Shown here piece after piece: positions 8,009 through 52,178 of a DNA stretch of 64,000 bases. Origin of the DNA: a candidate division FCPU426 bacterium. Its GTDB lineage: Bacteria; Oederibacteriota; Muellerivitia; Muellerivitales; Muellerivitaceae. Each line of letters opens with the position of its first letter. Positions within the stretch are counted from its first letter, which is position 1. The stretch is from positions 320,001 to 384,000 of the forward strand of contig CAVRAL010000001.1 of assembly GCA_963719085.1 (NCBI GenBank). The letters run 5' to 3'. Below the pieces are notes generated by a model, which did not search any database, was not told the origin of the DNA, and saw only the letters and a list, made by a program, of their open reading frames with translations. Position numbers and translations under genes: made by a program.

Positions 8009-9084
8009 TGGAGTTATTAAACCAAGGCAACGGCCAACACAATTTTCACCGCCAAGACGCCAAGCTCGCCAAGAAAATCAAGAAACAATCGAGTTTTGAA
8101 AAACATTCATTTTTTAGCCTTACTTGGCGCACTTGGCGGCCACTCTTCCATAAAACAGTTAATGAGGGTGGCGCTGTCCCGCTTGTTTGGCCCAAGAGTG
8201 GGCCAGCGGGACGTCTTGGCGGTGAAAGGGTATTCAGTGTTTTGGCTTTGTTTGTTTGTCTTATGACAGTACCTTTGGCGGCCGTGGCGCAAACGCCCGT
8301 GCCGACCCCTTCGGCCAATACCTGGGACTATGCCGCTTTCCAAGCCGCCTTTAAGGCCAGCGGCCGCACGACGACCTTAACCCAGGAAAAGTTTGACGCG
8401 GTTCAGGTTCAAAAGAAGAAAGCCTATGACTATTTGAAGACCTATCTGGATGGCAAGTTCGGTAAGGCCAATCCCGCGGTCTTGGCCGGTTTCCAAGCTC
8501 TGCCGCGCGAGTATTACCACTACAACTACCAGAAGGGCAAAGATTTCTGCTCTTTGGCCTATGACATTCCCGGCAAGCCCTGGGCCATCGGTTATGGCTC
8601 CGCCTTGAGCGATTACCCCGGCCAGGCCTATATGATTCAGTTGGCCAGGCCGAAGCCCACGGATGTGGCTTTAGAAATTGGGACGGGAAGCGGTTACAAC
8701 ATTTCACTGCTCTCAAAAACAGTGAAGGAAGCCTACTCAATTGAGATCATCCAGCCTTTGGGTGAGGCGGTCTCCAACATTTTCGCGCCGCTTCATTTGA
8801 CCAACATCCATACCCGGGTCGGGGACGGCTTTTTCGGTTGGCCGGAGGTGAAGGGCGGGTTCAATTTGATCGTGGTTACCTGCGCCGCCCAATATGTGCC
8901 GCCCCAGCTTTTAGAACAGCTCAAGCCCAACGGCCGCATGATCATCCCCATCGGCCAGCCCTTCCGCGGCCATCAGGTGCTTTATGTCTATATGAAGGAC
9001 GCCGACGGCAAGGTTCATTCGAAGAAGGATATGGGCGTGTTCTTTATCCCGATGACGGGGCAGATGCAGAAGGGGAAGACGTAG
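8005..9084 (+). CDS. pcm: protein-L-isoaspartate O-methyltransferase-like protein with signal-peptide-like segment; start uncertain
   Basis: LEIGTGSGYN, GDGFFGWPE, QLKPNGRMIIPIG; ATG at 8005 overlaps upstream TGA; frame stays open across a palindromic element. Confidence 0.8.
   Translation: MMELLNQGNGQHNFHRQDAKLAKKIKKQSSFEKHSFFSLTWRTWRPLFHKTVNEGGAVPLVWPKSGPAGRLGGERVFSVLALFVCLMTVPLAAVAQTPVPTPSANTWDYAAFQAAFKASGRTTTLTQEKFDAVQVQKKKAYDYLKTYLDGKFGKANPAVLAGFQALPREYYHYNYQKGKDFCSLAYDIPGKPWAIGYGSALSDYPGQAYMIQLARPKPTDVALEIGTGSGYNISLLSKTVKEAYSIEIIQPLGEAVSNIFAPLHLTNIHTRVGDGFFGWPEVKGGFNLIVVTCAAQYVPPQLLEQLKPNGRMIIPIGQPFRGHQVLYVYMKDADGKVHSKKDMGVFFIPMTGQMQKGKT
8044..8227. repeat. palindrome family A, right arm interrupted by two-hairpin insert
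   Basis: TTTCACCGCCAAGACGCCAAGCTCGCCAAG ... CTTGGCGCACTTGGC[insert]GTCTTGGCGGTGAAA. Confidence 0.9.
8138..8212 (-). mobile_element. two-hairpin CGGGACA mini-element, copy 1 (subtype I)
   Basis: reverse complement closely matches 45896..45969 and sits at the same position in the host arm. Confidence 0.85.
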
Positions 9085-9166
9085 AGGTTAACAGAATTTT
9101 GAACAAGTATTAATCAAAACGGCTTTAGCTCATCGTTTAAACCGCAAAGTTACTCTCAAAAGCCAT

Positions 9167-9451
9167 TCAATAACCATTGAAGGGCGGTTCAAAACCCTTA
9201 TTTCCTAATGTTTTGAGAAATGCTGTCCCAGCTTCGGCAAAATTACCACCAAGCCACCCAATGAAAAAAAGAGAAATGAAAATCGATAAACGGGCGTTAT
9301 TGAATGATTTAGCCCTAATTTCTTGATTTATTTCTTTTTTCATTTTAACACGAATCTCCTTGATTAGAATTTTGGATTCTACAAAAACTAAAATAAAATG
9401 GTAAACATCCTCACAATAACCATTATGAGGATGTTTACCCGTACAGCTCAT
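9167..9451 (-). other. AT-rich orphan ORF or fragment bracketed by a 9-bp direct repeat
   Basis: composition visibly AT-rich relative to neighbours; AGCTCATCG at 9127-9135 and 9445-9453. Confidence 0.4.
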
Positions 9452-9544
9452 CGGTGATTTCTGAAATACCGTTGAAACAAGCTATGAAAAAACGGTAAAT
9501 CACAAACCTAGCTTTTGCCCCGCCTGCTTCCTAAGATAACCGCC

Positions 9545-14310: not shown

Positions 14311-15267
14311 TTAAACCGTCTCGGCGCTGGCCTGGCTCAACTTCTCAATCGTGGCCGGGTCCAAATCCATCTGCACCCCTTCGGCCAGGTCCTTCACCTG
14401 GTCCAGGTTGGTGGCGCTGGCGATGGGGGCCGTGATGCCGGGCCGGGCCACGAGCCAGGCCAAGGCGATTTGGGCGGGGGTGGCGCTTAAGTTTTTGGCC
14501 GCCTCATCCAGGGCCTTCAAGATTCTAAATCCCCGCTCGTTCAGGTATTTTTTGATCCCTTGCCCCCGCTGGCTCTTGCCCAGGTCCGCTTCCGACCGGT
14601 ATTTGCCCGTCAAAAATCCCGAGGCCAGCGAGAAATAGGGAATGACCCCCAGGTTTCTATCCCAGCACAAGGGTTCCAGGTTCTTTTCGTAGTCGGCCCT
14701 TTCATAGAGGTTGTAGTGCGGCTGCAGGGTTTGATAGACCGGATAGTTTTTCTTCGCGCTGACCTTCAGGGCGTCCCCCAGCCGGTCGGCTTTGTAGTTC
14801 GAGGCGCCGATGATCCGCACCTTTCCTTGTTTGACGAGTTCGGAATAGGCTTCCAGGGTCTCGTCCAAACGGGTGTCCAGGTCATCTTGATGGGACTGGT
14901 AAAGGTCGATCCTGTCGGTTTGCAGGCGCTTGAGGGAGTCTTCCACGGCTTTGAGGATATAAGTCCTCGAGAGGCCTTTTTTACCGTCCCCCATGTCCAT
15001 GCCGACCTTGGTGGCCAGGATGACCTTGTCCCTTTTGCCGCTTTGCTTGAGCCAATTGCCGATGATGGTTTCGGACTCGCCCCCCTGGTGGCCCGGAATC
15101 CATCGGGAATAGACATCGGCCGTGTCGATCAGGTTGAATCCGGCGTCCACGAAGGAGTCCAAGATTTTGAAAGAAGTGGGTTCGTCGATGGTCCAGCCGA
15201 AAACATTGCCGCCAAAGGCCCAGGGCGCCACCTCAATCCCTGAATTTCCCAGTTTGCGCATTTCCAT
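14311..15267 (-). CDS. aldo/keto reductase
   Basis: IDTADVY, ATKVG, SLKRLQTDRIDLYQSH, GKVRIIGASN. Confidence 0.95.
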   Translation of the reverse strand: MEMRKLGNSGIEVAPWAFGGNVFGWTIDEPTSFKILDSFVDAGFNLIDTADVYSRWIPGHQGGESETIIGNWLKQSGKRDKVILATKVGMDMGDGKKGLSRTYILKAVEDSLKRLQTDRIDLYQSHQDDLDTRLDETLEAYSELVKQGKVRIIGASNYKADRLGDALKVSAKKNYPVYQTLQPHYNLYERADYEKNLEPLCWDRNLGVIPYFSLASGFLTGKYRSEADLGKSQRGQGIKKYLNERGFRILKALDEAAKNLSATPAQIALAWLVARPGITAPIASATNLDQVKDLAEGVQMDLDPATIEKLSQASAETV

Positions 15268-15393
15268 GGAAGGTCTCCTTCAACTTGTTCTTCCGTGAAT
15301 TTTGAGCCTTGAGCCGGCCCAATCGCAAGAGCGGGCGGAAAAAAATCCGCCGGTCTTTGAGGATTAAGACCTTCTAACAAAGTTAAAAGGCAA

Positions 15394-15567
15394 TTGAGCA
15401 ATGATGCCCCGGGACCCCATTGAAGGAGTCAAGGAGGCCCGGGACAATACCGCTCTCTCTTGACTCCTTTATGGAAGAGCGGCGCGGACGCAGATAAACG
15501 CCGATTTATGATAAACATGGGATTAGGCAGCTTTTTATCGGCGTTCATCCGCATTTATCATTGTTAA
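15394..15567. repeat. palindrome family B, left arm interrupted
   Basis: GCAATGAT[insert]GGACGCAGATAAACGCCGAT ... ATCGGCGTTCATCCGCATTTATCATTGT. Confidence 0.85.
15406..15485 (+). mobile_element. two-hairpin CGGGACA mini-element, copy 2 (subtype II)
   Basis: GCCCCGGG...CCCGGGACAAT-CCGCTCT...AGAGCGGCGC. Confidence 0.85.
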
Positions 15568-15587
15568 ATTGGTTTTTGTTAGAGGCT

Positions 15588-16334
15588 CTAAGGCTGCGCG
15601 GCGAGGGGAGCGGTCGCCAAGCTGAGCAGGGACAGGGTCAGCACCAGGAAAACATATTGGAAAAGGCCCACATTGTCGGCCTCGTCCGGGACTTGCCGGC
15701 GAAAGGCCTGGAAGAGGGCAAAGCCCAACAGCGCTAAAAGCAGATATTCCCGGGTCAAGGTCAGCGCCAAGCCGATGCCGGCGACGGCAAGCCAGCGTTG
15801 GGGCCGGTTGAGCGAATGAAAGCCCCGTCCGCCGTCCAACTGCCAAAAGGGAATGAGGTTGAACAGATTGATCCAGGCCCCGGTATGGGCGATGGCGGAC
15901 CAGATGCCGTATTGGGTAAAAAGATAAGCCGCCCAGGCGGCGACAGCGGCCCCTAATCCCCAAAAGGGACCGGCGAGCCCGACTCGGGCGTCTTGGATGG
16001 GATTGGAAAAGGATTGCTGGACCCGGATGAAGGCGCCGACGAAAGGAATAAAAAGGGGGGCGGTGGCCTCGATGCCGTAGCTTCGCAGTTTGGCCACGTG
16101 GCCCATCTCATGGATATAAATGGAAAGCACGAAACCCAAGGCGAAAGGCCAGCCCCATTGGTGCCAATAAACGCCGAAAAACAAAAGCATGGATAAAAGT
16201 GTTTTGATTTTAAGAAGGCCCAGCAACAAAAACTTAAATTTGGCGAAGAGCAGGGCCAAGACCGCCAGGATGCTCCATCGGCCTGAGGTGTTTTTCGGTT
16301 TTTGGGAGGGAGTCAGGTCAAATTCGTCGCTCAT
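15588..16334 (-). CDS. site-2 protease (peptidase M50) family protein
   Basis: HEMGH zinc motif, LAGP, FNLIPFWQLDGGR. Confidence 0.9.
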   Translation of the reverse strand: MSDEFDLTPSQKPKNTSGRWSILAVLALLFAKFKFLLLGLLKIKTLLSMLLFFGVYWHQWGWPFALGFVLSIYIHEMGHVAKLRSYGIEATAPLFIPFVGAFIRVQQSFSNPIQDARVGLAGPFWGLGAAVAAWAAYLFTQYGIWSAIAHTGAWINLFNLIPFWQLDGGRGFHSLNRPQRWLAVAGIGLALTLTREYLLLALLGFALFQAFRRQVPDEADNVGLFQYVFLVLTLSLLSLATAPLAAQP

Positions 16335-16354
16335 GCGATTCCTTTTGAAATCAG

Positions 16355-17230
16355 TTAGGGTTTTGGCGGGAAGGGAACCAGTTCCCGGCCGCAGTCCCCG
16401 CACCGGCCTTCGGCGATGACATATTCTATATCACATCTTTGGCAATAGCTCAGGTGGGCGGGCGCGGAAGGCGCGGGCGGCTTCAAAAGATCGGCCGTGT
16501 CCATGCTTAAGTCTTTCAACCACTGGGCCAGCGCTTTTGCCTCGCCGATGGCCGTCGATTCGAGCCATAGGGATTCTTCCGGCCCGCGCGCGGCGGGATA
16601 GCGCAAACGAAGCATCCAGCCGCGGGCCAATCCCCCAAAGGCGGCCTCGTCCAAAAATAATTTCGCCGCGACCAGGGGATGAAAAGCTTTGAGCAGATCA
16701 TCCCCCAAAAGGTCGGCCGACCGGGAAGACTGCCAAGGCGATACCAGGCAGAGGATCGTTCTTTTGATTCGGATCTTTTTTTCGCCGGGGTAGAGCGCGC
16801 GGTGCGCCCGCCCAAAGGCGGCCGTGACGGCCAAGTGAAGCGCCAGAAAAACGCAAAGCAGGACCGCCCAAGCCAAAGGAAAACCCCGCCGGATAAAATA
16901 AAGGGTCAAGGCGGCGAGAACGACGAGCAGCAGGCCCCGGGTGAGCCAGTTTAAAATCCGGGTCTCTTGGTTAAAGGCGTCCCATCGGTTTTGGGCGTCC
17001 TGAACCGAAAGGCTGGCGGGCCCGGGGCTGGGCGCCCCCGGAACGGGGGCGGGGAAGCGGCCGGTGAAGCCCAGGGGCCAGGGATTGCGGAACCTTAACG
17101 CCGGACCTTGGATGAAAGAAAAACGCCGGAACCAAGATAGAAAGAGAATCTCCCCGGGCTTGGCCCATAAACCGCATTCGGCCAGGTAAAGTCCCAAGCC
17201 GAAAAGCAGGAACAGGTCAAGCCGGCTCAA
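16355..17230 (-). CDS. hypothetical membrane protein with C-terminal CxxC...CxxC zinc ribbon
   Basis: TM helices; YCQRC...RCGDC; operonic position. Confidence 0.7.
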   Translation of the reverse strand: MSRLDLFLLFGLGLYLAECGLWAKPGEILFLSWFRRFSFIQGPALRFRNPWPLGFTGRFPAPVPGAPSPGPASLSVQDAQNRWDAFNQETRILNWLTRGLLLVVLAALTLYFIRRGFPLAWAVLLCVFLALHLAVTAAFGRAHRALYPGEKKIRIKRTILCLVSPWQSSRSADLLGDDLLKAFHPLVAAKLFLDEAAFGGLARGWMLRLRYPAARGPEESLWLESTAIGEAKALAQWLKDLSMDTADLLKPPAPSAPAHLSYCQRCDIEYVIAEGRCGDCGRELVPFPPKP

Positions 17231-17251
17231 GGCAGGCTCCCGGTGGGATGA

Positions 17252-18130
17252 TTATTTCACCACGGAGCTTGGCGGATCCCCGTCGTCCTTTTTTCCGCCG
17301 CCGAAGAGCTTTTTGAAAAAGCCGCCGATGACCACGAAAATCACCGCGATGATTTTAAAACCCTTGGCCACCAGAAGCGCAATCAGGCCCCACAGTTTGC
17401 CGAGCAAACCGGTTTTCGCGGCCAAGGCGCCGGCCCCGCCCACCACCAGGGCGGCCAGGCCGATGTCCGCCACCTTATCGCCCGTGGTCCATTCGGCGTA
17501 TTTGTTTCCCTGGGTAAAGGTGAAATCGTTCAAGGTCTTTTCGAAGCCGGGAAGCACGGCCTCAAGGCTTCCATTGGGGTTGAGCACGACATTCATCACG
17601 CCCCGCCGCCCCAGAACGCGGGTGTTGTAGTTCACGAACTCATTACGGTCGTCCTTGATCTGGACGGCCCACTCCAACTTTTGGGTTTGGCTGTTGTACT
17701 TGGGTTTTTCGACCCATTGGACCAACTGCCATTGGGTCCATCCGTTTTCCTTGCGCTTATCGTTGGCTTTTTCATTGTTGGACTGCATGGTGCTCCACAT
17801 CTGGTCCGCGTCCAGCTTTTCGTCGGCCGCGTCCTTGATATAGCCGATGTCGTCGAAGCTGAAGAGCACCAGGTAGCCATGGCCTTTGTCCGGATTGTCC
17901 AAAACACCCAGCTCCGCGTCGGAATAAAGGTTGTGGGTCTTTTCCATGAATTCCTTCATATCATCCTTGCCGAAAAACACGCAGCCCGCGGGAATTTGGA
18001 TCTGGGCGATGTCGCCCAACTGTCCCACCGCGGGGCCCTTGATGGGATGAAGTTCGGCGCGGAGCGGAAGCGGCGCGAGGGCTAAAAACCAAAGGCAAGA
18101 TAAAACCGCGGATAAAAATTTAAAGCGCAT
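17252..18130 (-). CDS. DUF2167 domain membrane-anchored protein
   Basis: GYIKD, KLEWA, VNYNTRVLGRRGV, GDKVADIGLAALVVGG. Confidence 0.85.
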   Translation of the reverse strand: MRFKFLSAVLSCLWFLALAPLPLRAELHPIKGPAVGQLGDIAQIQIPAGCVFFGKDDMKEFMEKTHNLYSDAELGVLDNPDKGHGYLVLFSFDDIGYIKDAADEKLDADQMWSTMQSNNEKANDKRKENGWTQWQLVQWVEKPKYNSQTQKLEWAVQIKDDRNEFVNYNTRVLGRRGVMNVVLNPNGSLEAVLPGFEKTLNDFTFTQGNKYAEWTTGDKVADIGLAALVVGGAGALAAKTGLLGKLWGLIALLVAKGFKIIAVIFVVIGGFFKKLFGGGKKDDGDPPSSVVK

Positions 18131-18209
18131 AGGTCCTCCGAAAATTAAGGTGCGAACGGGGGCTAGTATAAATGGAAAAAGACGTTTGGAAAACCGCGGC
18201 TTGCAGGGA

Positions 18210-20768
18210 TTACCGCAGGATCAGCAGTTTGCCGACCGCGTGGCCCTGGCGGGTGGTGACGAGGATGTAATAGACCCCATTGGCCAACGGCGCGCCTTTC
18301 GCGTCGGTGACCGGCAGGGGCAGGGTCACTAAGCCCGCGGGAATGTTGGGGTAGGATGCCTGGTTTATTTTTCGAAAGGCCGTGGTGAAGGTTTTCAGTT
18401 CCACCTCGGCGGCGGCGGTCTGCATTAAAAATTGGATGCTCACCGGGCCTGAACTGGTGGGTGGGTTAGGGAAAATCACCGGCGGGCCGATGGGCGGCCC
18501 GGCGATCAAGGTAGGGGTAATCGTTGGCGACAAGGTTTGCGTGGGGGTTTGGGTCGGCGTCGCGGTTGGGGTCGGGGTCGGCAGAGGCGTGTGGGTGCGC
18601 GTGGGAGTCGGCGTTGGGGTGATGGTCATGGTCTCCGTAAAGGTTGCCGTAGGGGTAATGGAGGGCGTTAAGGTCACTGTGCTGGTTTCCGTCGGCGTCT
18701 GAGTTTGAGTCGGGGTTTGTGTCACGGTCGGGGTTGGAGTGAGAGTGGGCGTGGCCGTGAGTGTGGCCGTCAAGGTAACGGTGGGCGTCAGCGTGATCGT
18801 CGGCGTAGGGGTAATCGTGGGAGTCAGGGTCACGGTGGCGGTAGGGGTAACGGAGGCGGTCCAGGTGGGGGTTCCGGTGATGGTCGGGGTCGAGGTAATG
18901 GTCGGCGATGAAGTCCAAGTCTTCGTCAAGGTCACGGTCGCCGTGGGAGTAACCGTGGCGGTCAGGGTGGGGGTCGGTGTTTGCGAGGGGGTGGAAGTTG
19001 GGGTCGGGGTTTTGGTCACGGTCGCCGTCGGGGTCACGGTCGGCGTGCGGGTGGGTGTCGGCGTGTATTGGGTCAGGGTGATCTCATATAAGGTGGCCGA
19101 ACGGAAGGGCAGGGTGTCGGAAAAGGTATTGGCGGTAAAGGTGGGCGCTGCCGCGGGCGTGTAGAGGTTATAGGTGGTGGAATCGAACCGAAAGACCCGC
19201 ATGGAGACAATTTGCTGTCCCGCGGTGAGGTTGCTCAGCGTGACGCTGGCTTGGTTGTTGTTGGTGTAATCCTTGTTTAAAAGAATCACGTTGAGGCGCC
19301 CGGGGTGGCTGGTGTCGGTGGCCGCGTAAGCGGAAGTCAGGGACACCGAGCTGGTATTGGCCAAGACCGCCGTGGTCCCGAATTTGGCGTTGGCGCCGTC
19401 ATAGTTCAAATACATCTTGTAGGCGGCTTTCACGTAAGTGTCACTGGTGCCGTCATCCCACCGGCAAGCATAGACCCCGTATTTCCCCAAAATGCCCAGC
19501 GCGTCGGCCTCCGCCACGCCGCCGGAGACGTCCTCGCCCGAACCGTATTGATATTCGGAAAAAGAAAGCTTGGTGCCCGGATAATACTGGCTGACCGCCG
19601 CTTGAAGCCGGGGAATCAGGGTGATGGGTTTGTTGCCGATCGAGGAAGTGATCCAACTGGTCTCAGTGTAGGTCGGGTCCCAAAGCGACCTCGGAGCTTC
19701 CATGCGGGCAATAGCGACACCCTGGGTAATATTATCGTTCGTAATGCGCACTTGGCTCACGCCGTTGCTTCCGGTAGCTTCCGGATACCAATGCAGGTCC
19801 AGGTAATGCAATAGGCGCCGACCCGCCGTGGTGGAGGCTGTCTTCATGCCGGCCAAGTAGTAGTTGAGATATTGGACGCTGTTTCCGTTGGTATAGGGCG
19901 TTAGCAGGCTGTCATCGGACGCGCCTTGGTTGTTCACGTACTCGGCCCAGCCATAGCAAACCGGGCCTAAGACCTGGGCGTTGGGATCCATGGAGGTGAT
20001 GACGGTGGAAAGGCTCACGCCTTTTCCTAAAACTTCCGCGCAGGTGGGCTGGGCGGGATGGATATAAGGATGGGTGCTGTTCCAAAGCGCCGGCTCGTTA
20101 TCCAAATCATAAAACTTAGCCCCGCCGGTTCCGGCCATCCCCACGGTGTTAAAAAGATAGTTGAGGGATTCATCCATATAAACATTGTTGTCGGTGGTCA
20201 CGGGCGCGGTGGTAAAAGCGGAGCCTTTCACATTGACGACTTGTTTCCAATAGACGCCGGCGGTGTCGGCGGCGCCGGTGATGGACACGCTGCAATCGCA
20301 ATTGCCGTTGGCGGACACATAACCGGCCATGGGCAGGGTGATGAGGGAGTCCGCGTTTCGGGCGTTGTTGTTTTCGATGAATTGGGTCATCACGGTGGCG
20401 GGCAGTTGGTTGGCGTTTTGGGGCGGCGCGGGGTTCATGACGGACAGCAGGTACCAATCCTCTTCGTTGATGTAATCAGTCCCGGCGTTGGAAGAATTGT
20501 TTTCCCAGTTATAGCCCGTCATGCGGTTCCCGCCTTGGCGGTAGTAGGGAATTTGGGTGACTCCGATATCCTGGTTGGTCCCGTAGCTATGGATGTCAAT
20601 GGCGCTGTTATTTTGGGTCGGATCAATGGTGAAATTAACCGTAACGGCCCAGGCGGAACCCGCCCCAGCCAAAAACGTTATGAGTGAAACGGTTAAAAAT
20701 TTTCTGGAGAAAATAGGAAAAATGAAACGCCGCCTTGGCTTTAGTGAAAGATTTGAAAAGTTTACCAC
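18210..20768 (-). CDS. secreted GH44 endoglucanase/xyloglucanase with Pro/Thr linker and T9SS-CTD-like C-terminal domain; start uncertain
   Basis: [34 protein letters not shown]; long (TP)n linker; FPNP...LANGVYY...KLLILR tail. Confidence 0.9.
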
Positions 20769-20814
20769 GGGAAAAGGGCTTCGGGCTCCCTGAAAATGTG
20801 TCTGTTTTTACCGC

Positions 20815-22923
20815 TTACAGCGGTTGATGGGTCGGTAGCGCTTTGAAAGGCGATCGGTCCTGGGTCAGGGCCGCTTGGTAGAAATCGTAAAGTTGTTTGT
20901 ACTCATCGCCCGGCAAAATCGTCCGTTTTTTCAGGCCCATATAACGCTCATAACTTAAGGTCCCGAATTGGATCTTCGAGTCGGCGATGAACTCCGCCAC
21001 GTTGTTGGAAATGGCCCCATCCTTGGGCAGGTCGCCGACTTTGTAACCCGGCGGCAACTTCACCACGACCCGGGTGACCGAGTTAAAGCTTTGGGGAACC
21101 ACGATAGGGGTTTTCCGGGTTTCACGCAAAGTCGCGAGGAAATCTTCCACGTCCTCAAAAATGACCGGGTAAAAGTTAAAGCCGCCCTTGGGCTGGAACT
21201 CGGCGTAGCCGGGAATGGTGAAGGAATATTTCACGTGCAGGGGCTGGGTGGTATCGCGGTAATCGCCGTAGGAATAATCCGTGAGGACGGCGCCCGGAAA
21301 ACGCTTGTTCAAACCCCTCAGGACCAAGTCCTTGCGTTTGTCATCCGTGGTGGCCCTAAAAAATTGGCGCAAGGCCAGGTCCGCCGACCCGAAGGCCTGC
21401 AAGTCCACGGTGCAGTTCAAGTCGCCGTTCGGGGAAAAGGTCATCAGGATGTCCCGTTCTTTGCGGTGGTCCTTGGCGCTGAAAGAAGGCGTGGATTGCC
21501 ATTGAAGCGGCGGCAAAACCGCCAGCGCGGAAAGCCCCAGCGCCTGCAGGGGCAAGGTGCCGGGGGCGGCCAGGGGCTCGGTGGGGTCCAGCCAGATAAA
21601 GTCCTTGCCCTGGGGAACGCCGATTAAGACCCCGTCCAACTGGGAAAGGGCCGGAAGGTCGCCGATCAACTCACCGCTGCCGGCTTGGCGGTAAAGAAAA
21701 AGCTGGGGATTAAGTTTAATGGCCTGGAGCGCGGCCATTAAAAGAAGCGCCATGTCGTGGGACGAGCCCTTGCCGCTGGCGATGATTTCCGCGAAGGGGC
21801 GGTCGGGATTCAAATAAACCGGAAGTCCCGTATCAACCCAGTCGACTTTTTCGTGGACGGTGTTTTTGAGTTTGGTGATCCGGTCGATCAGCGCGTCCGC
21901 CGTATTATCGCCGGCCTCGGCGACCAGCGCGTTGATGGCGGTCGGGTCCTGGGCCAGGGCGTTCTTGACCCTTTGGCGGTAGGGCAGGACAGCTTCTTCC
22001 CAGCTTTTATAAGTGGTGAAGGCGGTCAAGGGAGCCAAGTCTTGGATGGGCGGTTGGAAACTTTCGGAGGGGACCGGCGTGATGGAGGGGTTCATCGCCA
22101 AGTGGATGACGCGGTCTTTGGACCCGGTTTCGGAGATGGCCAGGTTCGCGGGCTGGCGCAGGCGGATGGCGTAAAGGGGCATTTGGGTGGATAGGCTCAG
22201 GGTCAATTCCCGGTTGAGGGAAGCGACATAATCATTCCACCGGAAAGCGAAACTGGGCTCGGCGGCCACCGGATGCTGTTTGGTGGGAGTTTTTAAAAGA
22301 TCGCTGGTGTGGTTGGTCAGGGTATAGGTCACGTCCAGGGCTTCGCCGGCTTGAAGGTCCGGCAGGCTATAAGACGCGATTTTGGAAAGCGCGGGCGGAA
22401 GGTTGGGTTGGGGCGGCTGGGACGTGATGGAAACGCCGGCCATGGATTCTTTCGTGAACCCACCGTCCGTTTCCAATTTGTATTTTTGGATTTGATTGAC
22501 GCTCAGGTCTTGGGATTCCAGGTTCAGGGTGGCCAGCGGGGGCAGGGGACGGTCGGGTTTGACCCGGGCGGCCCACATTTGATGGACGGTGACTTTCATA
22601 CTGCGGTCCAGGTTCCATTCCACCTGGGCCTCGTCCAACAGGTTCAACTGATTGGGAGCGTCGGGCTGGGCGAATTGGCTGGCGGCTTGGGAAAGGGATT
22701 GGGAGACCACGGGATCGTCCTGGGGGGTGATCTGGACCGGATTGGTGGCGCAACCGCTCAAGAAAAAAAGGAAAAACCCAAATCCACCGCAAAGACGCCA
22801 AGACGCCAAGGCAGGCAAGTCGCCGCCGAAATCTCGATTTTGATTTTTAAAAATTAGTTTGATATTCCGGAAAGAGGGGGGTTGCGACTTCCTTGGCGGT
22901 TTGGCGTCTTTGCGGTGAAACAT
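20815..22923 (-). CDS. DUF3857/transglutaminase-like/DUF3858 lipoprotein
   Basis: LSGC lipobox, LQAGEALDVTY, GKGSSHDMALLL, WLDPT, VVVKLPPGY. Confidence 0.75.
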   Translation of the reverse strand: MFHRKDAKPPRKSQPPSFRNIKLIFKNQNRDFGGDLPALASWRLCGGFGFFLFFLSGCATNPVQITPQDDPVVSQSLSQAASQFAQPDAPNQLNLLDEAQVEWNLDRSMKVTVHQMWAARVKPDRPLPPLATLNLESQDLSVNQIQKYKLETDGGFTKESMAGVSITSQPPQPNLPPALSKIASYSLPDLQAGEALDVTYTLTNHTSDLLKTPTKQHPVAAEPSFAFRWNDYVASLNRELTLSLSTQMPLYAIRLRQPANLAISETGSKDRVIHLAMNPSITPVPSESFQPPIQDLAPLTAFTTYKSWEEAVLPYRQRVKNALAQDPTAINALVAEAGDNTADALIDRITKLKNTVHEKVDWVDTGLPVYLNPDRPFAEIIASGKGSSHDMALLLMAALQAIKLNPQLFLYRQAGSGELIGDLPALSQLDGVLIGVPQGKDFIWLDPTEPLAAPGTLPLQALGLSALAVLPPLQWQSTPSFSAKDHRKERDILMTFSPNGDLNCTVDLQAFGSADLALRQFFRATTDDKRKDLVLRGLNKRFPGAVLTDYSYGDYRDTTQPLHVKYSFTIPGYAEFQPKGGFNFYPVIFEDVEDFLATLRETRKTPIVVPQSFNSVTRVVVKLPPGYKVGDLPKDGAISNNVAEFIADSKIQFGTLSYERYMGLKKRTILPGDEYKQLYDFYQAALTQDRSPFKALPTHQPL
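22785..22917. repeat. palindrome family A, in frame in the 5' end of the lipoprotein gene
   Basis: CACCGCAAAGACGCCAAGACGCCAAGG ... CCTTGGCGGTTTGGCGTCTTTGCGGTG. Confidence 0.9.
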
Positions 22924-22925
22924 GT

Positions 22926-23588
22926 TTAATTTTTGCCGGCGTTCTTCAGGGCCCGCACGGCTTCTTTCATGTCCGGCGCTTTGAAGATGGCGGTCGCGGC
23001 CACCAGCAGGTTGGCGCCCGCTTCCACCACCGCGGGGGCGGTTTGGGGGTTCATGCCGCCGTCCACGGCGATGATGGGGGAAAGCCCCTCGGCGGAGCAC
23101 CATTTGGAAAATCCGGCGATGTTGGGAACCACATGGGGGATGAAGGATTGGCCTGAGAAGCCGGGCCAGACCGACATGAAAAGGACGTAATCCAAATCCT
23201 TGGCGAAGGGTTTGAGGACCTCGTGGGAAGTGTCGGGGTTTAAGACCATGCCGGGTTTACAGTTCAACTTTTTGATTTGGGTGATTATCGCGCCCGGGTC
23301 CAAAACCGCCTCGGCGTGGAAAAGGATATAGGTGGAACCGGCCCTGGCGAAGTCGGGGACGTATTTTTCCACGTTCTCAATCATCAAGTGGGTATCGAAG
23401 GGGACATTCACTTTGCCCTTGAGCCCGGCGATGACGGGCGCGCCAAAGCTGATATTGGGCACGAAATGCCCGTCCATCACGTCCATGTGCAGCATGTCCA
23501 CGCCGGCCGCGATGGCTTCCTCGGAATTTTTTAAAAGATGGGCGAAATCGGCCGAGAGGATGGAGGCGGAAACTTGTAGGGGCTTCAT
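22926..23588 (-). CDS. rpe: ribulose-phosphate 3-epimerase
   Basis: SILSADF, HMDVMDGHFVPN, DTHLMI, VDGG. Confidence 0.97.
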   Translation of the reverse strand: MKPLQVSASILSADFAHLLKNSEEAIAAGVDMLHMDVMDGHFVPNISFGAPVIAGLKGKVNVPFDTHLMIENVEKYVPDFARAGSTYILFHAEAVLDPGAIITQIKKLNCKPGMVLNPDTSHEVLKPFAKDLDYVLFMSVWPGFSGQSFIPHVVPNIAGFSKWCSAEGLSPIIAVDGGMNPQTAPAVVEAGANLLVAATAIFKAPDMKEAVRALKNAGKN

Positions 23589-23805
23589 GGGATTCCTTTA
23601 AAGCGGCAAAAGGTTGTTTTAAAAGCCGTTTTGGGGGCCGCCGGGGTCCTTGAAAACTTTGGACGGCCCCCCGGTTGATGCCGTTATACTATCAAAATCA
23701 GCTTCAATATCCTAGGCGCCGGGTTTTTGGGTTTGGTTGTGGTTTTTGCCCCGACCGCCGCGACTCTTATGTCACTGAACTTTTGAACTTATAAAGAAGC
23801 GCCCT

Positions 23806-26800
23806 ATGAAACCTAAAAAATCCGCCGCTTCCGTTCCCGCGCCTCCCTCCTTGGAGGCCTTTCTCCAGCCATTCCTCGAGAACAGCCCCATCATTTTTTG
23901 GTTCATGAACCCGGAAGGCATCGTCGAGTTTTCCTTTGGCCGGGGTTTGGAATCGCTGGGGGTGACGCCCCAGGAGCGGGTGGGAAAATCCGTTTTCGAT
24001 ATTTATCGGGACCATCCGAAGGTTTTGGAGTGCCTGCGCCGCGCGATCCAAGGGGAATCCTTCTCGGAGGTTGTTCCGGTCGGGGATATTTTTTTCGAGA
24101 CGAAATTCATCCCGCGGTTGGACGGCCAAGGCCGGTTGACCGGTTCCATCGGGATCGCCACCGATGTCACGAGCCGTAAAAAAAACGAGGAGTTGATGGA
24201 CCGAAGGGAACAGCATTACCGGTCCTTGATCGAGAACTCCCATGACGTCATTTATATCCTCGACGACAAGGGACACCGCACCTACGAAAGCCCCTCGGTG
24301 GAGAAGGTGCTGGGCTACAAGCCCGGCGAGCGCGCCGGCAGAAGCGTGTATGACTATATCCATTCCGAAGACCACTCGAACGTGCGCGAGATCTTCGACA
24401 AGCTGGCCCACGTGCCGGGCGTCACTTACCGGGTGGAACTGCGCGCCCGGCACAAGGCCGGCGGATGGCGGAATGTGGAGGTGGCCATCACCAATTTGTT
24501 GGAAGACCCGGCGGTGCGGGGCTGGGTCGTTAATTTTTGGGACATCACGGAGCTCAAACGCGCCGGCGAGATCGTGGAAAAGCAGGAGCAGTATTACCGC
24601 GCCTTGACCGAAAATACCCACGAACTGGTCGTGCTTTTGGACCGGGAAGCGGTCATCCGATTCGCCACGCCGTCGATCCAGAAAATTCTGGGCCACCCCC
24701 TCTCGGACCGGATCGGAAAAAACTTTTTGGAATGGGTCCATCCGGAGGATATTTACCGCACCAAGGAAGTTTTCACCCAAACCTATCTCTCGACGGGGCG
24801 GACCATGACGGTGGATTTCCGCGCCAGGCACCGGGACGGCTCCTGGCGTTTTTTGGAAGCGGCGGTCACCAACCTTTTCAACCACCCGGCGGTGGAAGGA
24901 ATGATTTTAAACGCGCGGGATGTCACCGAACGCAAAAAAACCGACGAGGCTTTGCGGGACCGGGAACGCTACTTCAGGGCCCTGACCGAAAACGCCTATG
25001 ACGTGGTTTATGTCATCGACCGGGACGGACGGCGGTTTTACGAAAGTCCTTCCACCGAGCGGGTGCTGGGATTTCGGCCCGGCGACCGGGATCCCGAAAG
25101 CACCTTTTCCTATCTTCATCCGGAGGACCAGGCGGCGGGGAAGGCGGCTTTCCAAAAATCCCTTCAAAATCCCGGGGTGCCGGTGGCGGCGGAACTGCGC
25201 ACCCGGCATAAGGACGGCCGGTGGATCCATATGGAAGTGGTGGCCACCAACCTGCTTGACGTGGCCGCGGTCCGGGGCGTGGTGGTCAATTGCCGTGAGA
25301 TCACCGAGCGCAAAAAAGCCGAGGAGGACCTGCGCCATTCGGAGGAGCGGTTCCGCAACCTGATTGAGAGCTCCCACGACGTGGTGAATCTTTTTGACGG
25401 GACCGGAAAAATTCAATATGTCAGCCCGTCGGTGAAAAGGGTTTTGGGTTATGAGACCGCCGAATTGATCGGCCAAACCAGCTGGGAATGGATCCATCCG
25501 GAGGACCTGGCCAAAGCGAGTCCGGTTTTTGAGCAGGTCATGCGGGCCCCGGGGCAGTCCCGGTCCATTGAAATCCGCTTGAGGCATAAGGATGGAACCC
25601 ACAAAAATATCGACCTCACCATGACCAACCTTTTGGACAATCCCGCGGTGCGGGGTATTGTGGCCAATTACCGCGACGTGACCGAGCGGGTCCGCACCGA
25701 GGAAAAATTCAGGAACTTGATCGAGAACTCCCGGGATGTGATCGCCGTGGTGGACATGCAAGGGCGCTCCTTTTATGTCAGCCCCTCGATCCGCAAGGTG
25801 ATGGGTTACGAGCCGGAGGATTGGATGGACCGCAATTTCCTGGAGCTCATCCATCCGGACGAGCGGGAAGCCGCCCGGCAGGGATTTGAACAGCTCATGA
25901 CCAGCCCCGGCGGCTCCATTTCGGCCCAAGTCCGGGCCCTGCATAAAAACGGCTCCTGGCGGCTGGTGGACGTGACCTGCACCAACCTTTTGCAGGACCC
26001 GACGGTGCAGGGGATTATTTTCAATTACCGGGACATCACTGAAAAGTATATGGCGGAAGAAGCGGTGAAGGTTTCCGAAGAAAGATTCCGGAACCTGATC
26101 GAGAATTCCAATGACGTGATCTCGCTCGTCAACGCCCAGGGGACGAACCTCTATATCAGCCCCTCCATCCGGAAGGTCATGGGCTATGATCCGGACGAAA
26201 GGATGGGCCGGAACTTTTTTGAGATCATCCACCCGGAGGACTTGGGATGGATTAAGAATGAATATGAGGATTTTTTGAGGCAGAAGAACAGCGTGCGCAC
26301 GATCCAGGCGCGGGCCCGGCACCGGGACGGGACCTGGCGCACCGTGGAAGTGACGGCCACCAATCTGCTCGACCACCCCTCCGTGGCCGGCGTTATTTTC
26401 AATTACCGGGACGTCACCGAGCGCCGCAAGGCCGAAGCGGCCTTGAAAAAGTCCGAGGAGAATTTTAGGTCGCTCATTGAGAAATCGCCCGACGCCATGA
26501 TCGTCCATACCGAGGAGAAGATTTATTACGTCAATGAGGCCTTATTGAAGCTTTTGGGTTATGACCTGCCCGACGATCTGGTGGGCAAGTCGCCCTTGAG
26601 CATGCTCCATCCGGACGACCATGAGAGGGTTTTGATACGGATCCGAAGGCTCAAACCCTTTGAGGGATTCAACCCGCCCCAAGAAAAAAGGTTTTTGCGC
26701 AAGGACGGGGGTTATATCGAGGTGGAAACGGTGAGCTTCTCCATTCTTTTTGAGGGGTCGCCCATGGTGGTGGCCATCGCCCGCGACTTGACCGACCGCA

Positions 26801-28862: not shown

Positions 28863-28889
28863 GAACTTCTAACAAAAACCTAATTCACC

Positions 28890-28964
28890 GCCCCGCCCGG
28901 CCTAGTTAGGCCGAACCAGGCGGGACATACCACCCTCAATATCATTTTATATATGGATGGTGGT
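28890..28964 (+). mobile_element. two-hairpin CGGGACA mini-element, copy 3 (subtype I)
   Basis: GCCCCGCC-GGCCTA/TAGGCC-GGCGGGACAT-ACCACC...GGTGGT. Confidence 0.8.
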
Positions 28965-28974
28965 GCCAAGACGC

Positions 28975-29048
28975 TCCCGGCGGCCGTAGTTCAGGCCAAT
29001 CGGCCGGGACATATCGCCTTCTTAATTATTTTTGTCAGGAGGGCGATG
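28975..29048 (+). mobile_element. two-hairpin CGGGACA mini-element, copy 4 (subtype I)
   Basis: TCCCGGC-GGCC...GGCC-GCCGGGACAT-ATCGCC...GGCGAT; boundaries +/-2 nt. Confidence 0.8.
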
Positions 29049-29072: not shown

Positions 29073-29150
29073 CATCCGTGTTCATCTGCGCGCGCGCCGC
29101 TCCACCCTCTATGAGCAAAGGGAGAGCGGCGTTGTCCCGGGCATCTGTGG
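29073..29150. repeat. family B right arm, interrupted
   Basis: CATCCGTGTTCATCTGCGCGC[insert]ATCTGTGG. Confidence 0.7.
29094..29142 (-). mobile_element. two-hairpin mini-element, copy 5 (subtype II, first hairpin deleted)
   Basis: minus strand GCCCGGGACAACGCCGCTC...GAGCGGCGC inserted after CAGAT. Confidence 0.7.
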
Positions 29151-30994: not shown

Positions 30995-31148
30995 ACAATG
31001 ATGTCCCGGGTCCCCCTATTGAAGTCAAAGCCGCCCGGGACAATGTCGCTCACCCCTAAACTGTTTTATGCAGAAGCGGCGCGGACGCTGATCAACGCTG
31101 ATAAAAAAACAAGACATTTGGTTCAAACCAATCCGCGTTCATCAATGC
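30995..31148. repeat. palindrome family B, left arm interrupted
   Basis: ACAATGAT[insert]GGACGCTGATCAACGCTGAT ... ATCCGCGTTCATCAATGC. Confidence 0.8.
31003..31082 (+). mobile_element. two-hairpin CGGGACA mini-element, copy 6 (subtype II)
   Basis: GTCCCGGG...CCCGGGACAATGTCGCT...AGCGGCGC. Confidence 0.85.
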
Positions 31149-33446: not shown

Positions 33447-34322
33447 ATGCCGAACCTATTGAAGCTTGGATTGCCCAAAGGAAGCCTTCAGGAATCCACT
33501 TTCCATCTTTTTTCCAAAGCCGGTTATAAAATCTCCTCCACTTCCCGGTCCTATTTCCCCAATATCGACGATGCCGAGATCAAGGCCATGCTGATCCGCG
33601 CCCAGGAAATGAGCCGTTACGTCGAGGACGGCACCTTGGATGTGGGCATGACGGGCCGGGACTGGGTCCAAGAAAACGGATCCGACGTGGTCGAGATCGC
33701 GGAGCTTATTTACGCCAAGCAGGGCCTTCGGCCCGTGCGTTGGGTTTTGGCCGCGCCGGCGGGCTCCGCCATCAAGTCGGTCAAGGATTTACAAGGCAAA
33801 AAGATCGCCACCGAACTGGTGAATGTCTCGAAGGCCTACCTGAAAAAGAACGGGGTCGCGGCCAATGTGGAATTTTCCTGGGGAGCCACCGAGGCCAAGC
33901 CGCCGGAGCTGGCGGACGCCATCATCGAGGTCACCGAAACCGGATCCTCTTTGCGGGCCAACAACCTGGTGATTTTGGAAACCATCATGGAATCCAACAC
34001 GGTTGTGATCGTGAATAAGTCGGCTTGGGAAGACCCTTGGAAGAAAAAGAAAATCCAGGATATGGTCCTGATGCTCAAGGGCGCTTTGGCGGCGGAAGAG
34101 AAGGTGGGGCTTAAAATGAACGTGCCGCGCAAGAGCCTGGAGGCGGTTTTGAAGGTTTTGCCCGCGCTGAATTCGCCCACCATCATGGAGTTGAACGATA
34201 AAGACTGGGTGGACGTGGATACGATCGTCGACGAGAAAATCGTCCGTCAAATCGCCCCGAAGCTAAAAGATGCTGGCGCCGAGGGGATTGTGGAGTATCC
34301 TTTAAATAAAGTGATTCCCTGA
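33447..34322 (+). CDS. hisG: ATP phosphoribosyltransferase (long form)
   Basis: [24 protein letters not shown]-terminal regulatory domain. Confidence 0.95.
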
Positions 34323-37541: not shown

Positions 37542-37626
37542 ACAATGATGAACGCAGATGAAAACAGATTTTCAAAAAATTAAGGCTTATCTATTTTCAT
37601 CAGCGTCCATCTGCGTTCATCATTGT
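37542..37626. repeat. palindrome family B (empty reference copy)
   Basis: ACAATGATGAACGCAGATG ... CATCTGCGTTCATCATTGT perfect 19-bp arms. Confidence 0.9.
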
Positions 37627-45880: not shown

Positions 45881-46062
45881 TTTTACCGCCAAGGCGCCCC
45901 GCTGGCCCATTGGGGGCCAAACGAGCGGGACAGTGCCGCCCCCATTAATTTTTTTATGGAGGGGCGGCCGCCAAGTTCGCCAAGAACAGCGAAAGACGAA
46001 GGCTTTTAAAACATATTTGGATTTAGCCTTTCTTGGCGAACTTGGCGCCTTGGCGGTGAAAA
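45881..46062. repeat. palindrome family A, left arm interrupted
   Basis: removing the insert gives ACCGCCAAGGCGCCAAGTTCGCCAAGAA, the exact reverse complement of the right arm. Confidence 0.92.
45896..45969 (+). mobile_element. two-hairpin CGGGACA mini-element, copy 7 (subtype I)
   Basis: GCCCCGCT-GGCCC...GGGCC-AGCGGGACAGT-GCCGCCCC...GGGGCGGCC. Confidence 0.88.
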
Positions 46063-50919: not shown

Positions 50920-50934
50920 TCCAACGGAGGCCTC

Positions 50935-51987
50935 ATGAATCGTGTCCATCCCAAAACCAAGCTGGTTTGCACCATCGGCCCCGCTTGCCGCTCCGACGCC
51001 ATGCTGGAAAAACTTCTGGTGGCCGGCATGAACGTGGCCCGGATCAATTTCGCCCACGGCACCATTGAGAAGAACGGCGAGGACATCCACCGCGTCCGCA
51101 AGGCTTCCCTCAAAACCAAGCGCCCCTGCCAAATTTTGGCCGACCTGCCGGGCCCCAAGATCCGCGTAGGCCAATTGCGGCACGAGCCCGTGAACCTGGT
51201 GCATGGCAAGACCGTTTGGCTCACCACCCGAAAAATTTCCGGCAACGTGGCCCATATCCCCATCGAGTATCCCCAGCTTACCCAAAGCGTGAAGAAGGGG
51301 AGCGTGATCTACCTCAATGACGGCTTCATGCAACTGCTGGTCCTTTCGGTCAAGGGGACCGAGGTGGAATGTAAGGTGCTGGTGGGCGGGGAATTGTTCA
51401 CCCACAAGGGATTGAACCTTCCCTCGGCGAAGCTTTTCGTGGACCCTGTGACACCCCATGACCTGGAGATTTTGGAGTACGGCATGAAGGAGGGGGTGGA
51501 CTTCTTCGGGGTTTCCTTTGTCCAACGGGCAGCCGATCTGCTGAAAGTTCGCGCCTTCGCCAGCAAGCGGGGGAAAATCGTCAAGATCATCGCCAAAATT
51601 GAGCGTTCGGAAGCCATCCGCAACATCGATTCCATCCTCAAGGTCACCGACGGAATCATGGTGGCCCGGGGCGACTTGGGCGTGGAAGTTCCCATTGAGA
51701 CCATGCCCATCCTCCAAAAGCGGCTCATCGCCAAGGCCAACTGGGCCGGGGTGCCGGTCATCACGGCCACCCAGATGCTGGAATCCATGACCCACAACAT
51801 CCGCCCTACCCGGGCGGAAGTCACCGACGTGGCCAACGCCATTTTGGACGGAACCGACGGCGTCATGCTCTCGGGCGAGACCGCCATCGGCGAGGACCCG
51901 GTCAATACGGTGGAAATGATGGGCAAGATCGCCGTTTCGGTGGAAAAAGCTTTCCTGAAGGAAAAATCAGCGGTGCATTGGTTTTAA
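50935..51987 (+). CDS. pyk: pyruvate kinase (short, lacks the C-terminal domain)
   Basis: [47 protein letters not shown]. Confidence 0.92.
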
Positions 51988-52004
51988 AGTCTTCCGGCAA
52001 AAAA

Positions 52005-52178
52005 ATTAGCAATGATATCCCGGGATTCCATATTGTGGTTAAAGATACCCGGGACAATGTCGCTCTCCCCTAACTTCTAAATGAGGAAGCGACGCGAACG
52101 CAGATGGAAGCCGATAGAAGATTTGTGAACCATTTGAATTTGTTTAATCCGCGTGTATCTGCGTTCATCATTGCTAAT
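52005..52178. repeat. palindrome family B, left arm interrupted
   Basis: ATTAGCAATGAT[insert]GAACGCAGAT ... ATCTGCGTTCATCATTGCTAAT. Confidence 0.92.
52017..52095 (+). mobile_element. two-hairpin CGGGACA mini-element, copy 8 (subtype II)
   Basis: ATCCCGGG...CCCGGGACAATGTCGCT...AGCGACGC. Confidence 0.88.

Follow-up and report, generated by a model that had tools for sequence, protein, structure and literature searches.

Copies of the element in the window

The window, i.e., the whole 64-kb stretch of DNA that was analysed, contains eight copies of a short two-hairpin element, each of which interrupts one arm of a larger host palindrome; the hosts are gene-less GxxExxY-nuclease palindromes. A genome-wide match list gave exactly eight copies within the window, and a genome-wide scan about 64 in total. 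All eight copies described in the sequence-only reading are real, one of them (29094-29142) being truncated; their positions were correct, except that 8138-8212 and 29094-29142 actually lie on the minus strand and that the fourth copy is better placed at 28973-29047. The features are listed below, with approximate ends for the host arms.

8043..8234, no strand: host palindrome of the 8138 copy, approximate extent
8138..8212, minus strand: complete 75-nt copy, interrupting the right arm of a host palindrome of octamer type; target C|G
15406..15485, plus strand: complete 80-nt copy, interrupting the left arm of a host of decamer type; partner arm within 15532-15580
28890..28964, plus strand: full element in an octamer-type left arm; 2-nt ambiguity of the ends
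28973..29047, plus strand: second full element in the same arm as the 28890 copy, one host repeat unit onward
29094..29142, minus strand: truncated copy that has lost the hairpin-1 loop, in an orphan arm from a different host family
31003..31082, plus strand: complete 80-nt copy, interrupting a left arm of decamer type
37544..37625, no strand: empty paralogue of the decamer-type host, both arms intact (right end hand-counted); its site is filled at 15406, 31003 and 52017
45896..45969, plus strand: complete 74-nt copy, interrupting a left arm of octamer type; partner arm within 46026-46061; target C|G
52017..52095, plus strand: complete 79-nt copy, interrupting a left arm of decamer type; partner arm within 52142-52190
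56787..56931, no strand: empty octamer-type host, both arms intact, approximate extent

The cluster at 28884-29151 is made of two arms from different host families, both without partner arms. At the position orthologous to the 52017 site, relatives carry other repeats.

Structure of the element

The element is about 77 nt long and consists of two homologous hairpins of about 38 nt in inverted orientation, separated by one base; hairpin 2 is the inverted homologue of hairpin 1, a relation that the sequence-only reading had overlooked. The consensus of the hairpin unit begins R-Y-S-C-C-G, and the loops contain a small dyad, whose spacer is mostly 5 nt (65/87). All seven full copies fold as DNA into two hairpins (200 shuffles each): z ranges from -3.2 to -4.7 in six, and is only -1.4 in the 31003 copy, the weakest of the eight, while the truncated copy forms a single hairpin (z -2.6). 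Hairpin-2 stems had been claimed to vary in sequence yet keep pairing, and compensatory stem changes are indeed seen in the alignment. Among 27 aligned copies of the element's own genome, 91.5% of the cells pair, against 31-50% in slid controls, and both sides have changed in 9 of 14 stem pairs, a figure matched by none of 500 shuffles, the covariation scores being inflated by kinship among the sequences. The stems covary within each hairpin, both in these copies and in those of relatives. Linear folding gave two hairpins for 67 of 102 copies, one long hairpin being as ready a fold in young copies, and 76 of the 102, when circularised in silico, fold as a dumbbell.

Host palindromes and choice of site

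The statement that the element occurs only inside palindrome arms holds for the window copies and fails family-wide, where 20 of 38 independent sites are in arms (controls 17%) and four are start codons, with the element placed exactly at the start and in either orientation; some sites have no arm at all. Random placement relative to arms, which would have spoken against the initial proposal, was not seen: over the whole genome, a strict arm motif is found no more than 150 nt away for 41 of 63 copies, compared with 7.9% of random intergenic spots, and once the element is removed in silico, inverted-repeat arms contain 28 of the 43 parsed junctions, compared with 6.3% of 1500 controls. At independent sites the preference for arms is about threefold; the own genome shows a far stronger bias, which is probably due in part to copies that spread together with their host. 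There, one slot is common to most copies, the element subtype tracks the host type, and the similarity between copies from different flanks does not exceed 84%. The own-genome copies are old and look inactive, and many have probably multiplied as passengers of host palindromes. Their orientation in the first replichore of C1 shows no bias (8 plus, 7 minus).

Junctions and target dinucleotide

The sequence-only reading gave no junction rule; the junctions were found to follow C|R. For the non-tandem copies of relatives, 88 of 92 junctions are C|A (84) or C|G (4), and the 92 form 38 target clusters, which share no consensus beyond C|A. Insertion is thus shown to be precise at a C|R step, nearly always C|A. 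The claim that there is no clear target duplication holds in the own genome, since a 2-bp direct repeat flanks only 5 of 43 parsed copies, whereas 89 of the 92 junctions in relatives can also be read as a 2-bp duplication. In the own genome, 24 of the 43 copies have C|G ends in C|A targets, in four flank types as judged by eye; the end bases are borne by the element and do not derive from duplication of the target. Complementarity between the target bases and the two bases at the centre of the element is seen in 83 of the 92 copies of relatives and in 34 of the 43 own copies. The tallies of pairing and of ends are inflated by the parser, which required paired stems and favoured R..Y ends. All four C|G targets of relatives (two clusters) show the matching change in the centre. 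Target pairing did not reach significance when tested by folding (P 0.09 and 0.37).

The repeat readable in relatives is what would be expected of a MITE of a DDE insertion sequence, having two terminal inverted repeats of about 37 bp (TG..CA) and a 2-bp CA/TG duplication. Tandem junctions that read end, 2 bp, end would also suit such an element, end-to-end junctions being a feature of IS30-like elements, and so would the long hairpin of young copies. However, the scarcity of the repeat in the own genome, where the mismatch recurs in several flank types, the covariation of the “duplicated” base with an internal one and the compensated hairpin that each repeat keeps for itself make this origin improbable; moreover, the precise empty alleles described below are unexpected of DDE elements, and a parent insertion sequence was not found.

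Distribution, empty alleles and arrays

Of 30 further genomes of the family, 20 contain the element according to the model built for it, which found none in 68 genomes from other families of the phylum; it is spread through one family of uncultured soil bacteria. The comparison of loci suggested at the outset yielded both orthologous and paralogous empty alleles, which support the view of a non-autonomous, independently mobile element. At ftsE, as at truB, precise empty and filled alleles are found among orthologues. The filled state of ftsE requires at least four changes on well-supported branches, and the spacing after a -10-like box is 5-7 nt in empty and filled alleles alike; the element begins at the expected start of a leaderless transcript. 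Precise excision may be read from the empty alleles, with which repeated insertion is also compatible. One genome contains a perfect head-to-tail tandem array of eight copies, and a three-copy array was also found; in addition, a composite carries a 17-nt piece of a host hairpin at a C|A site, with an empty paralogue in the same locus. Among the joints listed for contigs of four low-depth runs, none skips any of the five copies in 14500-34000, a result that carries no weight.

These data make independent and precise mobility highly probable. The opposite view, of an element without mobility of its own that forms part of mosaic palindromes and is propagated along with its hosts or through gene conversion, would account for the single slot, the host-linked subtypes and the low identity among flanks in the own genome. 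It is weakened family-wide and appears very unlikely, given the 38 distinct target clusters, the several unrelated host families, the start-codon sites, the copies up to 97% alike in separate flank clusters of relatives and the empty and filled orthologues of ftsE and truB.

Six of eleven ftsE leaders contain a short ORF that ends on the ftsE start. In this the element resembles the MIRUs of mycobacteria, which are about 77 nt long, form tandem arrays and carry a short ORF overlapping a start codon, as the element does at ftsE; the element differs in being a hairpin dyad that inserts in either orientation and mostly inside other palindromes, and in that the coupling is local rather than general, as the same frame is open in only 38 of 96 other copies. 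Together with the perfect array and the position at a leaderless start, these short ORFs could indicate an RNA-based element, either a small RNA, circular or structured, of which a reverse transcriptase makes copies (rolling-circle arrays), or a MIRU-like translational-coupling unit. Such a nature is highly unlikely: reverse transcriptase genes were found neither in the own genome nor in four of five element-rich genomes tested, Rfam gave no match, and start codons are occupied in both orientations.

Searches for an enzyme and for long copies

In the own genome, which is 99% complete, no genes for Y1, IS110, reverse transcriptase or serine recombinase were found, and PF01797 has no match. A small Y1-like ORF of the same genome was discarded, neither the HUH nor the tyrosine motif being visible in it by eye. 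Relatives gave some 100 Y1 matches, of which about 30 were inspected: these possess their own ends and the element flanks none of them, in draft genomes that lose repeats. Two TIRYT loci have copies nearby, and the presence of Y1 genes does not track element numbers. The IS200 ends at two intact loci and one partial locus are unlike those of the element. The Y2 profile had no match in 31 genomes, but its control was silent, which makes the result uninformative, and a serine recombinase was present in one of five genomes (G012).

The integron integrase profile TIGR02249 was likewise without matches in the 31 genomes, an equally uninformative result since the control was silent, and the junctions are C|R and not the G|TT of attC crossover. 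Both points, the first with that reservation, count against a tyrosine-recombinase substrate on folded single strands (attC- or CTX-like), in which one strand would be exchanged between a dumbbell and a hairpin stem. Such a reaction would be in keeping with stem-enriched targets, with a circle junction that forms a duplex with one bulged base, with the loop dyads and their usual 5-nt spacer, and with one host (L079) that looks attC-like; nevertheless, the crossover lies outside the loop dyads and the flanks of the five recombinase genes of the own genome, read by eye, contain no such hairpins, so that this route is quite unlikely.

IS110 genes occur in 7 of 31 genomes. Thirty loci were fetched and the gene ends could be read for 20; where readable, the ends are unrelated to those of the element, and the nearby unit matches are, or resemble, ordinary short copies. 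A mini-IS110/IS1111 module with a 2-bp core, like the ISPpu9 ssr9 modules in REP sequences, is scarcely credible, even though a shared end dinucleotide, circles and nesting in palindromes are IS110 traits according to the available part of 10.1101/2025.01.17.633520. Loops match the target no better than chance (4.50 against 4.53 shuffled, 65% of shuffles scoring as high), there is no guide loop matching an extended target, and a target consensus is missing. Compared with ssr9, as far as that source describes it, the element is alike in being gene-less, putatively circularising and placed within palindromic repeats, and differs in having no guide complementarity, no fixed target and no matching IS110 ends. 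The targeting by IS110 that had been considered is therefore not borne out, while an IS200/IS605-type route is plausible.

Long copies with a transposase or nuclease ORF between the hairpins were searched for and none was found. Of 26 loci in five genomes, 24 were short, one was cut by another insertion and one was a single hairpin; six loci from the genome collection were all short, and 24 from metagenomes all short or interrupted. A pattern barring the short form gave no match, and an own-type pattern none in the genome collection. Two further patterns that exclude the short form gave 71 matches in five genomes, of which 60 were fetched; they were mostly chance coding matches, to which a few single hairpins and gene-less variants are added. 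Three viral scans returned nothing, one chance coding match and nothing, plasmids no match, and phages no match covering 80%. The genes between close copy pairs of the own genome are housekeeping or unremarkable by eye. Thus, of the initial proposal of mobilisation in trans by an enzyme outside the window, the non-autonomous nature stands and an IS200/IS605-type enzyme is plausible, whereas no gene for it was found in the window or the genome.

An Rfam match, which would have identified the element as a described one, was not obtained at gathering score. The element was also compared with the HDV, twister and pistol ribozyme patterns, and a likeness was rejected by eye and by Rfam. No search of the literature, in a collection with few subscription journals, listed it; the supplementary REP family tables of PMC3733652 and PMC6006769 could bear on its novelty.

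Comparison with known systems and proposed mechanism

Close parallels exist with the REPINs and REP dimers of RAYT/TnpA-REP, which, in the available parts of PMC3116915, PMC3733652 and PMC8266576, are also two inverted short hairpins, intergenic and lineage-restricted, and form mosaics and tandem arrays. The spacing of some REP dimers is 1-2 bp, other palindromes house certain REP families (PMC3733652, in part), and one TnpA-REP cuts at CA (PMC8266576, in part), like the C|A junctions. Unit alignment and both-strand matches show that the mobile unit is here, too, a pair of inverted palindromic units. The element differs from REPINs in lacking the GTAG/GTGG or CGTC tag at the hairpin foot, in its units of about 38 nt with large conserved loops and in its cuts at fixed positions at the hairpin feet; furthermore, no RAYT gene flanked by the element was found among the Y1 matches inspected in draft genomes, and none in the own genome.

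With the PATEs, which are non-autonomous IS200/IS605 derivatives, the element shares the absence of coding capacity, two hairpins, insertion without duplication, scarless empty alleles and an expected single-stranded circle (PMC10055086, as far as accessible), precise excision being read from the empty alleles. Unlike what that part of the source describes for PATEs, its hairpins are terminal, homologous and inverted, and its target is a dinucleotide; no fixed 4-5-nt motif lies 5′ of the left end in the 38 clusters. Ends common to an autonomous tnpA element were not found at the three IS200 loci.

A non-autonomous, REPIN/PATE-like element that moves as a single-stranded circle, probably by an HUH enzyme, is the best reading, to which we give about an even chance. 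A trans-acting enzyme would bind both hairpins on single-stranded DNA, cut 3′ of C at each end and close the element to a circle; the circle would adopt a dumbbell fold, its sealed junction pairing with the bases that flank the central nucleotide. Insertion at another C|R would follow where hairpin or single-stranded DNA is accessible, such as the arms of nuclease-derived palindromes or melted promoter and start regions, and the central bases may pick the target dinucleotide. The best-fitting chemistry would be that of HUH tyrosine transposases (Y1-like), the kind that serves REPINs and PATEs. According to the accessible text of the two reports, an HUH REP transposase cuts at CA and CT as determined by a guide (PMC8266576), and IS200/IS605 elements exit as single-stranded circles with scarless rejoining (PMC10055086). 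Against the HUH route stand the missing GTAG-type tag, the fruitless search for an enzyme or a long copy, the duplication-readable junctions of relatives, the ambiguous linear folds and the lack of orientation bias. The guide geometry of IS608 also differs from the one proposed. That the element is the smallest unit of an unrecognised transposition system, in which a 77-nt single-stranded dumbbell selects its dinucleotide with its two centre bases, can multimerise and carry DNA between two hairpin ends and is served by a chromosomal enzyme that escapes the current HUH, recombinase and transposase profiles, is rather unlikely.

Significance

The birth and insertion of REP-like repeats are poorly understood because of their diffuse cut sites. 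The element offers base-exact ends, empty and filled orthologous alleles, a guide variant (C|G versus C|A), arrays and a composite with cargo, features from which, taken together, a minimal reaction of single-strand integration can be clearly predicted. The family comprises uncultured bacteria only, and the own-genome copies look inactive. The element represents a second layer of parasitism on nuclease-derived palindromes, and through such selfish DNA the leaderless cell-division gene ftsE may acquire a leader, in some cases one that includes a coupled short ORF.

Copies in the window and in the genome

The sequence-only reading had placed eight copies of the two-hairpin element in the window, starting at 8138, 15406, 28890, 28975 (better bounded from 28973), 29094, 31003, 45896 and 52017, and all were found there; those at 8138 and 29094 lie on the minus strand, and the first hairpin of the latter is devoid of its loop. 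In the whole genome (3.04 Mb), a search with an iterated nhmmer profile yielded 73 rows, 64 of them at E < 0.001, which correspond to 63 copies once one two-strand duplicate is dropped; of the 65 loci in the merged list, exactly eight fall within the window, and 8/65 appear to overlap mechanically called long ORFs. All seven full window copies fold the two hairpins, with z from -3.2 to -4.7 in six and -1.4 in one. In an alignment of 27 copies, pairing is kept in 91.5% of cells, and 9 of the 14 base pairs are changed on both sides; this pairing score, inflated because the copies are related, was matched by 0/500 shuffles, and slid controls pair at 31-50%. A rival reading is an RNA element; the proposed Rfam search gave no match at the gathering score for the window and seven other loci.

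Matches obtained on both strands identify hairpin 2 as a homologue of hairpin 1 in inverted orientation. Each unit is about 38 nt long, with a stem of 7-9 bp and a loop containing a small dyad whose spacer is mostly 5 nt (65/87); the units are one base apart and the commonest element length is 77 (39/102). Stem changes are compensated within each hairpin and cross-hairpin pairing fails at variable positions, the absolute pairing values being biased because the parser demanded paired stems. Covariation links the first base of the element to the one that closes hairpin A (A-T in 91/102, G-C in 5/102). When the ends are joined in a model, the junction pairs with the centre, leaving one base bulged, and a dumbbell with this pairing is the fold of 76 of the 102 copies once circularised; for young copies, one long hairpin is about as favourable.

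Other features of the window are:
18210-20768, minus strand: protein with long Thr-Pro repeats
23806-27513, plus strand: large protein with an internal repeat of about 126 codons
55046-55169: PyrR leader match below threshold (37.8 bits, cut-off 54), upstream of a pyrimidine operon

Host palindromes and targets

The genome contains four GxxExxY (PF13366) genes, one of them in a cassette with an internal TGA stop (G000:C4:693746-694096). All four are flanked on both sides by the octamer- or decamer-unit arms in which the element also sits; thus, the hosts are gene-less versions of these cassettes. Both arms are intact in sixteen decamer-type and twelve octamer-type hosts, including that at window position 37544. 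Placement relative to the arms is not random, as had been anticipated: a strict arm motif is close to 41 of the 63 copies, against 7.9% of intergenic positions taken at random; rebuilt junctions fall in an inverted-repeat arm in 28 cases out of 43 (controls 6.3%), and in 16/17 strong cases hairpin 2 is the one facing the partner arm. Decamer-type copies mostly occupy one common slot, element subtype tracks host type, and similarity between copies from different flanks does not exceed 84%; these sequence features argue that the copies of this genome are old and that many probably spread together with their hosts. The rival view of the element as a passenger module belongs with this pattern, and is to be weighed together with the targets found in relatives.

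At G000:C1:1032954-1032993 and in L099, a fetched locus, the whole host-palindrome loop is replaced by a single hairpin unit with symmetric arms on either side; at G000:C4:139019-139169, two divergent tandem copies, not part of a palindrome, directly precede an apparent start codon.

Relatives also have the element inside other palindromes, which we take to resemble DUF559-, GIY-YIG- and REP-type repeats. An inverted-repeat arm contains 20 of 38 independent clusters, against 17% of 196 controls (P 0.0025), and two fold-based target measures gave no difference between the 38 clusters and controls (P 0.09 and 0.37). In four of the 38 clusters, the site coincides exactly with the start codon of an ORF, 231-407 codons long, and two tandem groups likewise end at apparent start codons. 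Hence, the claim that the element occurs only in palindrome arms is true within the window, but not family-wide.

Junctions

The relatives provided 102 distinct parsed copies, 92 of them non-tandem: 84 have C|A ends in a C|A target (the bar marks the insertion point), four have C|G ends in a C|G target, and four have another junction or are mis-parsed. The 92 copies represent 38 target clusters, which have only C|A as a consensus. In the relatives, 89/92 junctions could be read as a 2-bp duplication, for which a DDE MITE is the rival explanation, but in the own genome only 5/43 copies show such a repeat, in line with the proposed lack of a clear duplication. There, 24/43 copies combine C|G ends with a C|A target, and by eye these belong to four types of flank. 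Complementarity between the target bases and the two bases at the centre is seen in 83/92 relatives' and 34/43 own copies, and it is only suggestive that the centre may guide the choice of the target dinucleotide, because the C|G variant in relatives amounts to two clusters. Loops show no match to their own targets.

Empty and filled alleles

Comparison of orthologous loci, as the sequence-only reading had advised, revealed empty and filled alleles at ftsE and truB. The 30 ftsE orthologues fetched, classed by eye, comprise 9 filled (3 degenerate or partial), 4 with remnants, 13 empty and 4 unclassable, and filled and empty states coexist within genera g3, g5 and g13; on the ftsE protein tree, the filled label requires 6 changes, and well-supported branches force no fewer than 4 of these. 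A -10-like box precedes the first ATG by 5-7 nt in 10/10 empty alleles tested and in 10/11 filled or remnant alleles with a box found, and this common spacing shows the gain or loss to be base-exact. Either repeated insertion or precise excision may account for the pattern. At truB, 1/30 is filled and a genome of the same genus is empty.

In the relatives' leaders (L137-L160), ftsE appears leaderless in empty alleles. In 6 of 11 filled or remnant leaders, the element contributes a short ORF, and the stop codon of this ORF overlaps the start codon of ftsE. The overlap is kept despite length changes (77, 80, 65 and 38 nt), which suggests selection for translational coupling.

Arrays and rearranged copies

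One relative, G012, contains eight 75-nt copies head-to-tail with identical printed sequence (L136 711-1310), an array that may be an assembly artefact; its joints are end to start, as expected of a circle. In G036, three unlike copies are in tandem. The L209 composite, at a C|A site, comprises a hairpin, a 17-nt host-palindrome piece and a further two-hairpin copy; an empty paralogue of the site occurs within the same locus. This arrangement suggests that two ends can mobilise intervening DNA.

At L215, around 1500, halves of two different host families are joined by a single hairpin unit, possibly by rearrangement between two copies. In L085 (around 1550), L293 and L300, the second hairpin is broken by other insertions, presumably with IS1182-like and IS21-like ends.

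Mechanism and candidate enzymes

On the favoured reading, the element would move by single-strand circle transposition through an HUH enzyme, a route that has, in our estimate, about an even chance. Such transposition fits the conserved single-strand structure at both ends, the dinucleotide junctions without duplication, the scarless empty alleles, the end-to-start arrays, and the bias toward hairpin and start regions. HUH enzymes act in this way: a guide controls cleavage by one TnpA-REP at CA or CT (PMC8266576), rolling-circle-like steps yielding tandem arrays have been proposed for REP transposases (PMC3333891), and IS200/IS605 elements rejoin their donor without scar (PMC10055086).

In the own genome (99% complete), searches for Y1, IS110, RT and serine resolvase were all negative. 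It encodes five tyrosine recombinases, and a rival mechanism is a tyrosine recombinase acting on folded DNA; the element hairpins were not seen in the flanks of these five genes. The solitary tyrosine recombinases of L005, L007 and L008 are three paralogues, and after each comes an apparent tRNA 3' fragment or gene. A further rival is a mini-IS110; IS110 occurs in 7/31 family genomes, with ends that, where readable, are unrelated to the element. Searches for IntI and Y2 gave no matches, with the controls silent too, and no long copy was found; the sequence-only reading had proposed looking for such copies with a transposase or nuclease ORF inside.

Y1 matches are present in 24/31 family genomes; on inspection, and following the classes of PMC6006769, these proved to be IS200 genes, genes of TIRYT type that have GGGG-tagged repeats of their own, RAYTs resembling subclass 2.4, or degenerate forms, among the matches examined. 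L110-L136 comprise multi-copy Y1 transposase genes of ~318 aa whose terminal repeats are GGGG-tagged; G012 and G034 have about a dozen of them, and they look recently active. A C-terminal HTH is expected in this Y1 subclass. A small Y1-transposase-like ORF without HUH and catalytic tyrosine motifs (by eye) is common to at least two genera (G000:C4:664944-665351, minus strand; L207 1484-1801) and sits after an apparent ABC substrate-binding gene. In a same-genus genome, L208 1462-2436 encodes a 324-aa TIRYT-like protein without the HUH histidines, of which no orthologue was found in the own genome.

Distribution and comparison with known elements

In the proposed covariance-model scan, model R1 matches 27/31 family genomes at E 0.001, own included, with up to 112 matches per genome (both strands counted). 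At E 0.0001, with only 47 candidates scored per genome, it matches 20/30 other family genomes and 0/68 genomes of other families in the phylum. Among 24 metagenome loci, 20 have proteins matching the own genome (identity of the best hit at each locus, 35-89%), and the other 4 lack such proteins. The plasmid search gave no match to the element and the phage search just three short chance matches; other phyla, probed by exact patterns only, may contain distant relatives.

The element works like a REPIN or PATE; however, it lacks defining features of both, namely the GTAG tag of REPINs and the 4-5-nt target motif of PATEs, and no cognate gene was found for it among the Y1 genes inspected. The kind of element is already known, because REP dimers 1-2 bp apart or nested in palindromes (PMC3733652) and the REP doublet as a mobile unit (PMC3116915) have been described. 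A literature search, supplementary tables and ISfinder being outside its scope, found no description of this element; what is new here is the family-wide set of empty and filled alleles, the junction rule and the arrays.
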